Position numbers and translations under genes: made by a program. DNA of 42,273 bases from a virus (Duplodnaviria; Heunggongvirae; Uroviricota; Caudoviricetes), in the IMG/VR virus record IMGVR_UViG_2908959467_000004; one strand, written 5' to 3'. The notes under the pieces are model-generated. The model was not told the DNA's origin and made no database searches. It saw nothing but the letters and a program-made list of their open reading frames with translations. Each line of letters begins with the position of its first letter. Position 1 is the first letter of the stretch. Of the stretch, positions 1 to 6,632 are shown one piece after another.

Positions 1-267
1 ATGCGCAGAAAAGAGTCAAACGTTAGCAGTTTGCCGGAACTCACCAATTTTGAGGTAAGCTATTCTCTGGTTACCAATGAAGTTTACTTGTCTGCATCCT
101 TCACTGATAACATGGTCTGTATACCAAACTGGCCCTTACAAGAATTTCCGGATCAACTAATATGCATTTCTCGAGCAAAAGCTGTTGCCCTAATCGAAGA
201 GCTCCAGAAGACCATCAACTATATGGATGCAGGAATAGATCGAAGTTCAGGTAGCCTTCTCCAGTAG
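1..267 (+). CDS. hypothetical protein (low-GC cargo gene beyond the tail module)
   Basis: 88-aa ORF starting at window position 1; AT-rich; no recognisable motif. Confidence 0.3.
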   Translation: MRRKESNVSSLPELTNFEVSYSLVTNEVYLSASFTDNMVCIPNWPLQEFPDQLICISRAKAVALIEELQKTINYMDAGIDRSSGSLLQ

Positions 268-327
268 CTGACGAGTTTTATAATAATTTGATATATATAT
301 ATCGTTCAATATTAGCGAGTACTTATA

Positions 328-975
328 ATGAGTGAATTTAGTAATTTTTTAAATAGCATTCCTGGATGGTTATCCTCCTCCCTCACAGCTCTAGTTGGTA
401 CTCTTATTGGCGGATGGTTTACCCTAAAAGGAGTTACCCAACAAGCTAAGCTGTCTAAAGTAGAGACAGAAAGAGAATCCCTTGAATTGCAACTTTCAGT
501 ATTAAAAGGTGTTAAGGGAGAAATTTTCACCCTAATCAATTTATATAATAAAAGGATGAAAACACACATTGATAGTATCAAACCCGGACAGATGTTAATT
601 CTCACTTTCCCTGTAGGGGATGATAATTTCACATTCTATGAGCAAAATGCGAATGTCATTGCAAAACTAAATGATTCTGCCAGAGACTCAATAATTAATA
701 TCTACACATATTCACGGTCATTAATACAATCATTTAAAGGAAACAACAAACTCATTGAGGATTATGAAAAAATCCTTATTGGTATGGCTGACAATAACAA
801 AGATAAAACCATGTATAAGAGATTACATGATGAAAAAATAGATGTAATGGTAGATTATGCTCAAGGGATAAAAAATATTGATGAAGAACTAAGAGATGCA
901 GTCAATAAGGGATTCAACATTATCGACCAAGAAGTAAAGTCGCTACAAATGAAATTAAACAAATTAGCTTCATAG
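328..975 (+). CDS. hypothetical membrane-anchored protein (one N-terminal hydrophobic helix, then a Lys/Asp/Glu-rich soluble domain)
   Basis: 215-aa ORF; N-terminal segment WLSSSLTALVGTLIGGWF looks transmembrane; AT-rich codon usage unlike the flanking tail genes. Confidence 0.45.
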   Translation: MSEFSNFLNSIPGWLSSSLTALVGTLIGGWFTLKGVTQQAKLSKVETERESLELQLSVLKGVKGEIFTLINLYNKRMKTHIDSIKPGQMLILTFPVGDDNFTFYEQNANVIAKLNDSARDSIINIYTYSRSLIQSFKGNNKLIEDYEKILIGMADNNKDKTMYKRLHDEKIDVMVDYAQGIKNIDEELRDAVNKGFNIIDQEVKSLQMKLNKLAS

Positions 976-1059
976 AAATGCTCCACTCCCTGTTCAAGAT
1001 TTTTACAAGCTTATCAGCCAGCCGTGGCACGTTCTTGCATACGACGTGCCACGGTTTCA

Positions 1060-1188
1060 TTCATCTCCGACCGGAAACTTCTTATACAAAGTCGATACGC
1101 CAACATCATAGATGATCGCCATTTTCTGGCGAGAAACTCCTGATGCAATTTGTCGTCCAGCCTGCGCCCATTGCTCCGGCGTGAGAGT
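1060..1188 (-). pseudogene. remnant of a Gin/Pin/Hin-family DNA invertase (C-terminal HTH only)
   Basis: Minus-strand translation LTPEQWAQAGRQIASGVSRQKMAIIYDVGVSTLYKKFPVGDE-stop resembles the C-terminal DNA-binding domain of Gin/Hin invertases as I recall them; no start codon and no catalytic N-terminal domain. Confidence 0.6.
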
Positions 1189-1269
1189 AAGACAGTAAAC
1201 TGTAGAAAAATCTCATTAAACTTAATATAATAATAAGTTACAGAATTATCTTTACTGAATAATAGACAT

Positions 1270-1815
1270 ATGAATATTAGTGAACTTAAAAACTGTATAC
1301 ACTATGAAGTAATAGGTTATAAACGCCCTTTCTCCTGGCGAAAAGCAATTGTTCGCGCAATAAAACACAGAAGATTACGTTATTTATTTTGGTGGCGCGT
1401 AGCAAAATATCTTTTTGATAAAGGAGGATACCGGCGAAAGATTGCAGGAAAAATAGAACGCTTCATTCTTGATAAATACAATGTAACCGTTCCCTTAACT
1501 GTAAATATTGGTAAAGGGTTCGACATATCTTATCTTAATGGCGTTGTTATCGGTCACAAAGTTACAATAGGTGAAAATTGTTCAATTAAGCCTGGGGTAA
1601 CTATTGGACTTCGCGGTGAATTTAATGATATGGATATTGTCATAGGAAATAATGTAACCATTGGCTGTAACGCCACCATCCTTGGTGGCAAAGTGCATAT
1701 AGGGAATAATGTAAAAATAGGAGCTCATGCATTGGTACTGCATGACATTCCTGATGACTCCACATTCATTACTAAATTTCACTCTGAAATTATTTATAAC
1801 TCATCTCACACATAA
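1270..1815 (+). CDS. hexapeptide-repeat (left-handed beta-helix) O-acetyltransferase, CysE/WcaB-like
   Basis: 181 aa; imperfect hexapeptide repeats IGKGFDISYLNGVVIGHKVTIGENCSIKPGVTIG...IGNNVTIGCNATILGGKVHIGNNVKIGAHALV; low GC; convergent with the tail fiber assembly gene. Confidence 0.7.
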   Translation: MNISELKNCIHYEVIGYKRPFSWRKAIVRAIKHRRLRYLFWWRVAKYLFDKGGYRRKIAGKIERFILDKYNVTVPLTVNIGKGFDISYLNGVVIGHKVTIGENCSIKPGVTIGLRGEFNDMDIVIGNNVTIGCNATILGGKVHIGNNVKIGAHALVLHDIPDDSTFITKFHSEIIYNSSHT

Positions 1816-1825
1816 TTCCGTTTAA

Positions 1826-2404
1826 TCACAGCTCTGGCCATACGATATCCGGGGCTGTATTTATATCAATCCGACTCACTAATACCCGGTATTTTTTCCA
1901 GGAAGATAGCATCGAGATTTCCTCATCAGTTGCCATTTCAAAATTAACAGCATCCTGCAGAATTGTTATGTTATCAGTCGCTTCCTGGATTAATCTTGCC
2001 TTTTTCTCTTCCGCCTCCCGGATCCGGAACAGTTTTTCTGCTTCTGCATCTTTCACCCAAGCTGTGCCGTTCCACTTCTGAAACTCCCCATCCGGCGACA
2101 ACCAGGTGACATTTTCCGGTAATGGGCCAAGTTCAGAAATAAATAACGCGTCCCCTGATGCCACGTCATAAACTGTTTTACCCCGATGGTCTTCAACAAG
2201 ATGCCACGATGCCTCATCACTGTTGAAAACAGCCACGAAGCCAGCCGGAATATCTGGCGGTGCAATATCGGTACTGTTTGCTGGCAGACCTGTATGAGGC
2301 GGAATGTATGCGTCACCTTCACCAACAAATTCATTAGTTCCGGCCAGCAGATTATAAATTGTTATGGTCCGTGGTTGTTCACTCATTCTGAAATCCATGT
2401 TCAC
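1826..2404 (-). CDS. tail fiber assembly protein (Tfa/Mu U-like chaperone)
   Basis: 192 aa; sits at the end of the tail fiber region where a Tfa is expected; composition typical of Tfa proteins. Confidence 0.7.
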
Positions 2405-2406
2405 CT

Positions 2407-3309
2407 CTACTTAATATCAGAGACAGAATATTGTTTATTGAGCGTATGGGTGTGAGCACCAATAACGATGCTACTTCCGTGGCTATGTGCGCCAGAGATG
2501 ACATTACCTACGGGATTTTCTGGATTAATCCGGTGTATATGCGAACCAGGGCGAAACCGGTTATTAGCCTGATGTTGTATCAGTACATCATCAGCCTGAT
2601 GTTCAGGGTTAATACAGACCTGCCCGGAACGTGAGCAATACGTCCGATAATCGCCGCATCCAATATATTTAGTATCCGCATAACGGCAAACAGAATTACC
2701 CGGACAGTATGCATATGTGCCAAATACTGCCGACTGGCGGGATTGTGCGTATTCCCAGTTAATTGATTCTGTTTTTTTATTAAAGTTATCCCATGCCTGC
2801 TTCATCTGCCGGGCAACACTTTCAAACGGCACCTGACCACATCCGGCTCCCATTGCAGGGAATACCACCGTTTTTATTTTCCTGTCTGTCGTTGCGTGTT
2901 TATTGTGCTGAAAGATGGCAAGCAGAGCGGCCCAGGTTGCATTATATACAGCGTCTGTTCCGGCAATTGTCAGCGGAACACGCATTGTTGGCGCATGTAC
3001 CAGCCAGGGGTGATGATTATGCCCCGTTTCAATTACAAATGCAGAACCTACAGGCTGTTCGCCTAGATATTCACGAAGAATATGATTCTGAACGCGGGAC
3101 TGTAACTGAGTACCGAAGAATGCGGTAATGGCGGCATCAACGCCGCCATCCATCAGGCCGAAACTATTTGCCGCACTTACCATGCAGTCAAATTCTCTGA
3201 TTGTTTCAAATGGCTTTCCGACAATATTCACATTATCTGCGGTTGCAAATACCCGCTTAAATGCTTCAGCCATTTCTGTTACTGGTGCAGAAAGAATGAG
3301 CGTAATCAT
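2407..3309 (-). CDS. macro-domain protein with tail-fiber-like His-x-His C-terminal region
   Basis: 300 aa; N-terminal ~190 aa carry macro-domain signatures ([18 protein letters not shown]; [17 protein letters not shown]; [21 protein letters not shown]); C-terminus is Cys-rich and ends [19 protein letters not shown]; start overlaps the tail fiber stop (ATGA). Confidence 0.7.
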
Positions 3310-4421
3310 GCAAGCCTCACAATATAGTTAAATGCGATGTTTTTGACGGTGTTTTCCGCGTTACCAGCAGCGTTAACGGTGATGGTGTGTCCATGTGAGC
3401 CAATCGCAACCGAGTGCGTATGAGCACCAATACCCACAGTATGTGTATGCGCCCCAGCACTTGCTGCAGTACCTGATACTGAGTGGGTATGCGCGCCCGC
3501 AGAATTCGTTGCACCTAAGTGAGTTTGAGCAGAGTTCGACGAAGCTATTCTACCGGACCTAACGTTAGCATTATCCCCCTGAGATATCGGATGCGTATGT
3601 GCGCCTGCTGAATCTGCTGTTCCACTAACGCTATGGGTATGCGCACCAGTGTTATTCGTAGATTTAGTTCCATAATCAAACGATGATGTGGTTTTCGTAC
3701 CCAAATCCGTATTGGATGCGCTGGCGCTGTGGGTGTGCGATTTAATGCCATCCTGTTCCTGAGACAATACGGCTCGACCACTGGCTGGCTTGCCCTTAAT
3801 CGTCCAGCCACGCATATCAGGGATCACGCCTGACGGATAAGCAACTGCAAGTTTCGGGTATGCAGATTTGTCAAAAGTCTGCCCCTGCATCAGGGCATAG
3901 CCAGACGGAACGGTATCTGATGGCCACGGGATCGGGGCACCTACAGGAAAGGTCGAATTATTTTCCAAACCAAGATATTTAAGGACATCAGCAACAGAGC
4001 TTTTTGCCAAAATATCTCGTCCAACCTGTGTCAGGTCAGCCAAATTAGCGGTATCTTGATTGGTAAAATACGGTAATTTGTTTTCGGATGCTGAAAGATT
4101 AGCAAGTGCGGTAAGTATGGTATTAATTCTCTGATAGTTCTTATCTAATGCAGACGACATTTTTGCGATAAAGCCGGCCTGATCGCCATCGTCCTGTACA
4201 TCCAGTCCACTTTCATTTGCTGTATATTGTGCCATTGCAGATGCAATAAAGCTGGCCTGCCGAATAACCTTATTGACTTGCGCACTGGATGCTTTCCCTG
4301 CTGTAAATCCGGATAAAAGCGCAGGCAACGCTTCCCATTCCTCCTGCGACATAACATTGGCATTTTTACCCGTTGCGAATGCTTTAAAGTCATTTTTTGC
4401 CATCAGAGTAATACTCCCCAT
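3306..4421 (-). CDS. tail fiber protein (T4 gp37/Mu S-like tip with His-x-His repeats)
   Basis: 371 aa; C-terminal repeats [56 protein letters not shown]; last gene of the baseplate module. Confidence 0.8.
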
Positions 4422-5083
4422 GCACCTACATCAAAACCACTGATGAATTCGTTATCCATATCAAAACCAAAAAATTTTGAGCCTTCCGATGGGGCTTCCA
4501 CCGAAGGTGTTTCAATGCCACCCGCCCATACCCCGGCGGCTTTTACTGTGAGATACCCCTGTTTAATTGCCGCAATTAACTCACGCGATACATCTGAAAT
4601 ATCAGTATCAGGAAAGACCCAGACCGATATCGTCATGTCCTGGTTATCGACTATCTGCATTCGCAGCCCGGCTCCTGCTGTTGCCGCGTCAAGAATTGCC
4701 GGAAGCGAATCATTCCGTCCGTCCCAGTTATTAATCGCAGTCTTCGCTTTAAGAATGACACGATAAGTTTCATCGCTGAGATACATGTATCCTGAATCAG
4801 GATCGTATGGTCCCTGCCATACCCCCTGATCATACCCAAGCCCGTCGGTATCCCAGCTGAAATAGACACCTGAGATAGGCTGGCTGACAACACGGCTACG
4901 TCCGATCCACAATCCCAGAATGTCAAGTTGCACACCAACCGCAGAGTCAATATCAAATGCAGTAATCAGCCCTCTGGTGGCAGCCGCAACATCAATAAGC
5001 GGCCGGGTCATCAGATCAACATGTGCAAGAAATTTAGGTTTGGTGGCGTGGTAGTTCGTGATCAGTTCGGTGTATTTGCTCAT
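4403..5083 (-). CDS. baseplate/tail protein (Mu gp48 or P2 gpI-like)
   Basis: 226 aa; between baseplate J-like gene and tail fiber; overlapping stop/start coupling. Confidence 0.55.
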
Positions 5084-6279
5084 GACTCCACCGTTATAAC
5101 GATATTTTCCGGTGTACAGGACGCAGATTCGTTGTATCTGATATCAATGTTTGATGACGACAAAGCCCCCGGGGATTTCCCAATCGTCAGTTCCTGAATA
5201 TCGTAATAGCGTGCATTCCCGCCACTCACCACGCCAAGATTCGCCGGTGAGTAAATGCGACTTAAAAGGACCGAATCACCAATCATCAGACTATTGATAT
5301 AGTCGGAAATAGCCTGCTGGATCTGCTGCCCTATCTGTGAGGTATAACCCGTAAAAACTTTTAATTTAATCCGGGCATAAACAGGTACATCACTGGAACG
5401 CGAGAATTTGATTACATGGGGATTGCCGTATTTATCCGGAACCGTAACGGATGTTGTACCGTGAGTAGCTGTCCCCTGGCCTTTATTCCCTCTGATAGCC
5501 TGAGCAATATCCGTCACATCACCGCCATCCACAATTACAGCAACAGAGTGTGGCGGTAACCCGTTACCGTCCTCCGAACCAGTATCGTTTTCATAGAGTT
5601 TGTGGCGGGTTACACCGGTAACATTAGAAACAGCACCATCCAGTGCTTCAAATGGGGTAATTGATGGCAATGCAACACTTTGCGACTGGCGGATACGTAA
5701 CTCAGCATCAGTTTCTGCCGGAGAGCCAACAGTAGCCGCAGCAGGATTAGTTACCGAAACCCAGCCACGGGTTGGCGTATTAATTTCAGTGATAGTTCCA
5801 GCCAGCGCCGCCACTGCACCACTGACGGAACATGTTGCGGTCGCCATCACTGTACCATCCACGCCGACCACCACTGAAGCAGGCAAACGCCATATCACAT
5901 TATTACTGTCTTTCACGCTGCCATTAATGATGGTTGTTCCGGCAGTTCCTGTAAGAAGCAAATCAACCGTAGAGTTCGTCGCGCCTTTACGTGAAATACC
6001 ATTTATTTTCACGTTACAGGTCAGTGCAGCCCCATAGCCGGTTGCCGGTGAAAAACAGTTGTAGACAGTTATCGCCATATTATTGGCATCATGAATCGCC
6101 AGCGCCATCAGAGCCACCATCTGGCCGTCTTTGCTGTCCGGTTCGAGGTAGGCATCACTGCCATAAATCTGCTGAAAATAGCTAATCAGGGTGCTGAGTA
6201 TCGTCTGATAATCAGGCGCACTGATCCCCTCCGCGGTTACCTTTGCAGATAAACCGAGAGAATCAAGGTTCAGAGCCAT
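5080..6279 (-). CDS. baseplate J-like protein
   Basis: 399 aa; position and size match the baseplate J family in Mu/P2-like tail clusters. Confidence 0.65.
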   Translation of the reverse strand: MALNLDSLGLSAKVTAEGISAPDYQTILSTLISYFQQIYGSDAYLEPDSKDGQMVALMALAIHDANNMAITVYNCFSPATGYGAALTCNVKINGISRKGATNSTVDLLLTGTAGTTIINGSVKDSNNVIWRLPASVVVGVDGTVMATATCSVSGAVAALAGTITEINTPTRGWVSVTNPAAATVGSPAETDAELRIRQSQSVALPSITPFEALDGAVSNVTGVTRHKLYENDTGSEDGNGLPPHSVAVIVDGGDVTDIAQAIRGNKGQGTATHGTTSVTVPDKYGNPHVIKFSRSSDVPVYARIKLKVFTGYTSQIGQQIQQAISDYINSLMIGDSVLLSRIYSPANLGVVSGGNARYYDIQELTIGKSPGALSSSNIDIRYNESASCTPENIVITVES

Positions 6280-6632
6280 TACGCCTCCGATGTAACAGTC
6301 GTTATTCCATAGAGAGTGTCGATTTCAGCGGAAAACATGACACGTCGGGTCGTGGTATCCACCGTCGTATTGAAAGAGAGGATTGATTTAACGCCCCGCG
6401 TTTCCAGAATGCGTTTTCTGATCGCCAGGTTGTAAGTTTCCGGTTTTTGCCTGCCCAGCACGGACTGGATCCACGGAGTCCCCTCGGTGGTGTCGAGAAA
6501 CCATTGCCCATACCACAATTCGAATCGCGTTTTTACCGCCTGCGCCACGGCCTCCGGTGAGTTAATCAGCCAGGTGTCATCACCGCTGCCAAAGGTGTAA
6601 TCGCCATCGGCGTCTTCACGTCTGTATCGCAT
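6279..6632 (-). CDS. baseplate wedge protein (gpW/gp25-like)
   Basis: 117 aa; small baseplate protein immediately upstream of the J-like gene. Confidence 0.55.
   Translation of the reverse strand: MRYRREDADGDYTFGSGDDTWLINSPEAVAQAVKTRFELWYGQWFLDTTEGTPWIQSVLGRQKPETYNLAIRKRILETRGVKSILSFNTTVDTTTRRVMFSAEIDTLYGITTVTSEA

Follow-up and report, generated by a model that had tools for sequence, protein, structure and literature searches.

The open reading frame at positions 2407–3309 (minus strand) of the window, by which we mean the whole 42,273-nucleotide stretch of viral DNA under study, is an intact gene for a protein of 300 residues in which a Macro2-like macro domain is followed by a Cys-rich module and a short tail resembling the needle of a tail fibre. 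The gene runs from its own ATG to a TAG stop codon at 2407–2409, and comparison with related genomes indicates that it is a horizontally mobile cassette, optional in gp37/Stf-type tail-fibre modules, that sits between the fibre gene and the gene for the fibre assembly chaperone Tfa. The 42-kb window corresponds to a SEN34-like temperate myovirus prophage. Tentatively, and somewhat short of an even chance, we read the macro protein from its sequence and setting as a late-expressed counter-defence accessory, which would remove an ADP-ribose-derived immune signal or adduct and be trimerised or tethered by its tail, and not as a part of the adsorption apparatus.

The three genes lie head to tail on the minus strand in the order fibre, macro, tfa. 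The fibre gene (3306–4421) is an open reading frame of 371 residues identified by the Pfam families Collar and Phage_fiber and by a match to PDB entry 2XGF; its translation probably starts at the ATG at 4403, which overlaps the stop codon of an upstream DUF2612 baseplate gene. The chaperone gene (1826–2398) starts with the ATG at 2398 and encodes 190 residues (MDFRMSEQ...) matching Pfam Caudo_TAP at E=2e-38; the same profile gives no match to the macro protein, Tfa being the product of the gene downstream of it. At the upstream junction, the fibre stop (TGA) and the macro start (ATG) share the tetranucleotide ATGA (3306–3309), an overlap which is identical in Chuche, SEN5, Gifsy-1 and locus L006. 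The macro ATG has a Shine-Dalgarno-like GAGG (3315–3318, minus strand) within the final fibre codons (VRLA), at the position which, according to junction sequences, is used for tfa in prophages devoid of the macro gene. At the other end, the macro TAG is directly followed by AGGTGAAC and the ATG of tfa, with the AGGTG Shine-Dalgarno site of the latter (2402–2406, minus strand) right after the stop codon. Within the unit, no promoter- or terminator-like sites exceed shuffled expectation. Taken together, the ATGA overlap, the internal ribosome-binding site, the abutting tfa and the lack of a standout promoter or terminator lead us to read the three genes as one late operon: the macro protein is produced from the late fibre operon via translational coupling, between the fibre and its chaperone, and the coupling through ATGA claimed in the preliminary description is thus upheld.

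That description had also placed the gene as an insert between fibre and Tfa, and this is confirmed by an E. coli prophage of this type (L005, NZ_CP148570.1) which in blastn comparisons aligns at ~97.7% to window positions 1–2398 and 3305–6500 and lacks exactly the 906 bp at 2399–3304. At its junction the fibre stop and the start of tfa are directly adjacent (GCATAATGG), as in lambda, in which tfa lies directly 3' of stf and the macro gene is absent; the macro gene is therefore a clean insert in a normally contiguous fibre–Tfa pair. The fibre tip and Tfa of this prophage are 96.8% and 95.3% identical to those of the window, and as far as this comparison goes neither the fibre nor Tfa had to change to take in the macro gene.

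The fibre/Tfa module is present in 4,510 of 5,426 complete E. coli genomes and the macro gene in 127 of them. Gifsy-1 (STM2588.1n), the P2-like phages SEN4/SEN5 and Chuche and a P2-like E. coli prophage all have orthologues, as do phage-plasmids of the P1-like and other kinds. Four backbones (P2-like, lambdoid as in Gifsy-1, SEN34-like and P1-like) carry the fibre–macro–Tfa arrangement. Fibre tip, macro gene and Tfa are strictly adjacent in 11/11 enterobacterial loci and in 39 of the 41 IMG/VR contigs (50/52 overall). Across the IMG/VR contigs the macro gene remains 96–99% identical, whereas the flanking fibre tips are only 68–85% identical and Tfa ~80%, which indicates that the gene moves as a cassette untied to one receptor-binding allele; the idea of a mosaic generated by recombination therefore holds in the sense of such a mobile cassette. 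Decayed copies are also found, one interrupted by an IS3-family transposase (IMG/VR contig L132, 2275–3141) and one annotated as frameshifted in a P1-like plasmid (L091, 5001–5892), showing that the cassette has been lost or inactivated in some lineages. In Salmonella phage SEN34 (L004, 4001–4147) there is a 49-residue remnant of the macro Cys-rich tail (59% identity), located downstream of this phage's own fibre–Tfa–O-acetyltransferase module, which by its sequence looks like the leftover of an earlier, displaced fibre–macro–Tfa module.

Two genes at the end of the prophage deserve mention in their own right. Just past tfa, on the opposite strand (1270–1815, plus), lies a hexapeptide-repeat gene of the 'serine acetyltransferase' type (EpsC/CysE/WcaB-like), with a good sigma-70-like promoter of its own at 1203–1231. 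An acetyltransferase lies at this spot in 18 of the 41 IMG/VR macro loci, in the form of two alleles that share only 38% identity, and likewise in a P2-like prophage and in a P1-like plasmid, in the latter alongside an LPS GlcNAc-transferase. Judging by its sequence the gene is probably a lysogenic-conversion gene modifying surface polysaccharides; a functional link with the macro gene is unsupported, as the same acetyltransferase is present in the macro-less L005. Beyond it lies an open reading frame of 215 residues (328–975, plus) without a PADLOC match; it is conserved in L005, where it is annotated as a hypothetical protein, and may represent a further moron at this end of the prophage.

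The sequence family is already known and annotated, Gifsy-1 of Salmonella LT2 included, and in this respect the gene is much more commonplace than the preliminary description implied. Indeed, the protein matches the PHROG 2613 profile, which is annotated as function unknown, over nearly its whole length (E=2.9e-147, residues 1–270 against positions 1–271 of 274), it is 96% identical to an E. coli 'macro domain-containing protein' (P0001), and its homologues, over 1,700 in number and chiefly of Escherichia and Salmonella origin, are labelled by NCBI either 'macro domain-containing protein' or 'phage tail protein'. The orthologues STM2588.1n of Gifsy-1, gp19 of SEN4/SEN5 and CDS0053 of Chuche (63–85% identity) have the same three-part architecture, the same position between fibre and Tfa and the same ATGA overlap; they differ in the length of the tail and the number of HxH units, with total lengths from 274 to 300 residues and a 28-residue insert in the window protein. 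That macro proteins of phages may be associated with virions or morphogenesis has been published in general terms. A literature search combining macro or macrodomain with tail fibre retrieved no study of the PHROG 2613 macro family and no functional study. We found no published description of a Macro2-like domain, a Cys4 module and a gp37-needle-like tail in one protein, of the constant location of its gene between gp37-type tip and Tfa on four phage backbones, or of isogenic pairs occurring in nature that differ by this gene.

The macro domain comprises residues 1–195 (2725–3309, minus strand), and its identity, proposed earlier from sequence motifs, is substantiated by profile, structural and evolutionary analyses. 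Pfam Macro (PF01661) matches residues 44–169 with E=1.1e-18 and 67.8 bits, well above its curated cutoff of 22 bits and with all 118 profile positions covered. The motif N-x6-GGVD (N48...G55 G56 V57 D58) and the ADP-ribose loop G154-A-G-C-G158 are each found in 108/108 full-length family members. An initial AlphaFold2 run using 19 close homologues gave a pLDDT of 58, and a 119-sequence alignment rescued the macro domain, with values of ~90 or above across most of residues 1–190. Every top Foldseek match of this model in the PDB is a macro domain, which supports the three-layer alpha/beta/alpha macro fold; the best is the yeast protein YMR087W (1NJR, E=2.2e-10), which also ranks best when the family profile is compared with the PDB (E=3.4e-16), ahead of TTHA0132. 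The Pfam Macro_2 profile (PF14519) scores 24.5 bits (E=2e-5), just under its cutoff of 27, and we thus call the domain Macro2-like and not a proven member, a precomputed PF14519 match being present in some close homologues. The dN/dS ratios of the domain, 0.04–0.17, show it to be under strong purifying selection; as, in addition, all family-invariant residues are retained in the phage proteins, it very likely functions in binding or hydrolysing ADP-ribose.

Its closest relatives outside the family were sought among 1.8 billion cluster representatives, where residues 1–195 belong with stand-alone macro proteins of ~200 residues (40–54% identity) from Chloroflexota, Cyanobacteria, Acidobacteriota and others, and also with some eukaryotic multidomain proteins. 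The bacterial stand-alone proteins, such as that of Acaryochloris marina, are 46–54% identical over this region and keep the same invariant residues, but none of 119 has the C-terminal tail and they do not lie in phage fibre modules. Conserved operon partners that could hint at a substrate were absent around these homologues, the best neighbour cluster being found at 10 of 73 loci. As for YMR087W, its N-terminal extension is shared with the macro protein and its ADP-ribose loops align, but the identity is just ~21% and the yeast protein has neither the Cys/His tail nor a phage context. It is the sole studied member of the Macro2-type clade and is reported to turn ADP-ribose-1''-phosphate into ADP-ribose while lacking de-MARylating activity (PMC6397177). 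By analogy, this nearest characterised relative points to small ADP-ribose derivatives over protein ADP-ribosylation, a correction to the reversal of ADP-ribosylation-based immunity suggested in the preliminary description.

Other phage macro domains offer a functional parallel of a different kind. T4 AdfM (Tk.4), a macro-domain anti-DarTG2 factor, and a DarG2-like antitoxin of chimalliviruses act against ADP-ribose-based defence, and both are DarG-like; unlike them, the gene studied here sits in a late structural operon and bears a fibre-like tail. An identity as a DarG antitoxin was rejected, the NCBIfam DarG model scoring 12.5 bits against a cutoff of 250 (E=0.066) and the PADLOC DarG model 14.5 bits over 39 residues, and so was a DarTG reading of the locus, in which there is no adjacent DarT and the neighbours are the fibre and Tfa. 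In the jumbo phages RSL1, FBKp24 and Noxifer (L007, L008 and L009) we observed stand-alone macro proteins of ~180–215 residues encoded amid non-structural genes, labelled 'appr-1-pase/phage tail assembly-like' in RSL1 and 'tail protein' in Noxifer and FBKp24, the FBKp24 copy lying near an RNA 2'-phosphotransferase. From the sequences and this setting, the 'tail' labels look as though they were carried over from the enterobacterial family, and we have thus ruled out an independent macro–tail link in jumbo phages.

The C-terminal part of the protein has a rather different character. The preliminary description had noted that it is Cys-rich and carries GAHTH repeats like those of the fibre, and in fact five Cys residues fall within 31 residues (202 to 232), forming with their surroundings a module (residues 200–241, 2587–2712, minus strand; ...YIGxGDYRTxC...CI..HQ.DD) made of C202, C208, C225 and C232 plus the variable C218. 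The pattern C-x4/5-C-x16-C-x6-C, followed by HQ.DD, is kept in about 105/108 family members, and the module is possibly metal-binding. Behind it, the needle-like tail (residues 255–288, 2446–2547, minus strand) has three GxHxH units, namely GSHIH at 255, GAHSH at 273 and GAHTH at 284. Such units are scarce, as all six frames of the window contain 11, nine of which are in the fibre (six) and the macro tail (three), and none of 20,000 shuffles of the tail reached three. Tails with 1 to 4 HxH units are found in 105 of the 108 family members.

The resemblance to the fibre goes beyond the motif. BLASTP aligns the tail with the descending strand of the fibre needle at E=5e-4, and the tail of a Salmonella family member (GAHTHTIDIGAHNHAIHTGAYAY) aligns to the same strand without gaps at E=9e-6; no Pfam match to Phage_fiber or Collar was obtained for the tail even at E≤10, the only profile match being PHROG 295 at E=0.3. 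The C-terminal 223 residues of the fibre itself (149–371, window 3306–3974) make up a collar, needle and tip of the T4 gp37 type, contain six GxHxH units and are ~80% identical to the gp37 receptor-binding tip of PDB 2XGF (E=5.5e-90); a tip of this type also lies ahead of the macro gene on lambdoid, P2-like and P1-like backbones. In gp37, the HxH units of three chains bind seven iron atoms critical to folding (PMC6957217). The macro tail has the same GxHxH units as the gp37 tip and lambda Stf, and the 9-residue HxH spacing of the descending gp37 strand is matched by the tails of some family members; unlike those fibres, it is only 35–60 residues long and has no collar or tip domain, and the N-terminus is an enzyme and not a shaft. 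The DNA reported to be shared by the two 3' ends is indeed there, but it amounts to 18 nt at 89% identity (2447–2464 versus 3415–3432, 12 nt exact), no longer than the common IGAHTH peptide requires, and is therefore trivial; a recent recombination between the two 3' ends was ruled out on this account.

No HxH or Cys4 pattern occurs beyond residue 190 in any of the 119 stand-alone homologues, which identifies the tail as a phage-specific acquisition: by this comparison, the Cys4 module and the GxHxH tail were acquired by this enzyme only in enterobacterial phages. Searches with the tail alone returned just family fragments or full family members, giving no sign of its use as a docking module on other enzymes. 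Close relatives differ by the loss or change of single HxH units and the dN/dS of the tail, 0.2–0.3 at long range, rises to 0.6–1.0 at short range, on which grounds the tail may be only loosely constrained. In the AlphaFold2 monomer the confident macro fold (residues 1–190) gives way to a tail with pLDDT under 60 and a Cys-rich module that is also of low confidence, as expected in such a model if the segment is disordered or needs oligomerisation or metal to fold. Izhakiella australiensis (L014–L016) has three fibre–macro–Tfa copies, with the macro domain 69% identical and in the same position, and with a tail that is unrelated in sequence yet Cys/His-rich (CDCGCG...) and has five HxH units. 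It can be argued that the metal-ligand character is what is selected, and the Izhakiella sequence suggests that a metal-ligand tail evolved there independently or diverged rapidly.

In the counter-defence reading, the tail would trimerise the macro protein, as metal-binding HxH layers do in gp37, and/or would tether it to the fibre–Tfa assembly complex, probably with the help of Tfa. The macro domain would act inside the infected cell, late in infection, hydrolysing or sequestering an ADP-ribose derivative linked at the 1'' position; the substrate might be an NAD-derived immune signal, or the ADP-ribosyl adduct of a host defence triggered by the appearance of late structural proteins. Consistent with this are the macro identity, with its pocket motifs in 108/108 members and dN/dS of 0.04–0.17, and the small-molecule preference reported for the Macro2 clade (PMC6397177). 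The accessory nature is suggested by the 906-bp presence/absence relative to L005, with neighbours that need no co-adaptation, and by the sporadic occurrence (127/5,426 E. coli genomes) on four backbones, with decayed copies and no tie to one fibre allele. A role for the tail is suggested by the strict adjacency (11/11 and 39/41), by its absence from 119 stand-alone homologues, by the Cys/His tail of Izhakiella and by the match of the fibre tip to 2XGF, whose HxH triplets bind iron (PMC6957217). Phage macro domains among morphogenesis genes have been predicted to counter soluble ADP-ribose signals (PMC9503650), T4 AdfM is a precedent, and side tail fibres and their chaperones set the sensitivity to the His-ADPR-signalling type II Thoeris (preprint 10.64898/2026.06.04.730250). 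However, that link was shown in Pseudomonas N4-like phages, whose fibre is of a type other than the gp37 type found here, and late expression would be ill-timed against early-acting defences such as DNA ADP-ribosylation by DarT. Moreover, the tail is left without explanation if the enzyme need only be soluble, while its changing HxH units and its short-range dN/dS suggest a possibly loose constraint, and its confidence in the monomer model is low. A bolder version, in which the tail mimics or docks on the gp37-type fibre–chaperone complex and so places a 1''-specific hydrolase on the complex sensed by TIR-type (Thoeris-like) immunity, destroying His-ADPR or gcADPR at the site and time of their synthesis, we regard as improbable; the enzyme would then be anchored to the very trigger of the defence it counters and would travel with the host-range module.

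The main rival to the counter-defence reading moves the protein to the outside of the cell: an HxH-tail trimer on the side or tail fibre of the virion would display three macro domains that bind or hydrolyse a surface ligand during adsorption, for example an acetylated or ribose/phosphate-containing glycan. Its invariant position and translational coupling with fibre and chaperone, the fibre-like GxHxH tail gained in phage versions only, the 'phage tail protein' label of many members at NCBI and the LPS-modifying acetyltransferase morons that often adjoin the module would all suit such a structural accessory. The labels, however, look like annotation transfer, no ADP-ribose-like ligand is known on enterobacterial surfaces, and the pocket residues are those of the intracellular stand-alone homologues; the cassette is also dispensable, leaving fibre and Tfa unchanged when absent, is unlinked to a particular fibre-tip allele, and its product has no N-terminal attachment domain, so that we hold virion display to be unlikely. 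We give similarly little credence to a passenger with a relic tail, that is, a cellular macro gene captured at the fibre/chaperone junction, with a 3' end left over from a fibre needle and a housekeeping task without ties to the fibre, such as clearing ADP-ribose-1''-phosphate from RNA repair. The fact that the tail is locally homologous to the descending needle strand, its dN/dS near 1 among close relatives, the gain and loss of HxH units, the stand-alone homologues without conserved neighbours and the jumbo-phage homologues amid non-structural genes, one of them near an RNA 2'-phosphotransferase, agree with this origin. A mere relic would nevertheless not be expected to show a dN/dS of 0.2–0.3 over longer distances, nor a Cys4 module kept in about 105/108 members, nor an independent Cys/His tail in Izhakiella still with five HxH units, and a housekeeping gene has no need of strict translational coupling on four backbones.

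Two further explanations carry less weight. The Cys/His tail might serve as a metal carrier or co-chaperone for the iron-containing gp37-type needle, with a regulatory or nucleotide-binding macro domain: the position between fibre and Tfa, the richness of the tail in metal ligands and the need of the fibre needle for bound iron in folding (PMC6957217) are compatible with such an assembly helper, but lambda, T4 and the isogenic L005 build the same tip without the macro gene, no precedent was found and the strong conservation of the ADP-ribose pocket is left without explanation, making it a quite remote prospect. Lastly, the preliminary description had allowed for the open reading frame being simply the 3' end of a longer fibre gene broken by a frameshift, in favour of which there are only the GxHxH units common to both genes and the overlap at the fibre stop codon. 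The comparison with related prophages shows an intact, conserved and separately translated gene, the fibre upstream has a complete gp37/Stf terminus, its last 11 residues being canonical, the macro frame has a stop seven codons upstream of its ATG, the more than 1,700 homologues are separate proteins of 255–300 residues, and the macro domain has stand-alone cellular homologues at ~50% identity; clearly, a frameshifted-fibre remnant is refuted by these observations and retains practically no probability.

Macro domains are coming into view as a means by which phages counter bacterial immunity based on ADP-ribose and NAD, and few have been tested so far. Among prophages of E. coli and Salmonella the family described here is abundant, with Gifsy-1 of the model strain LT2 as one of its carriers, and it offers natural isogenic partners with and without the gene. 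Should the protein prove to be displayed on virions, it would be the first macro domain to act outside a cell; should the tail instead attach the enzyme to the fibre or its chaperone, this would be a new way to couple a counter-defence activity with a late structural protein.
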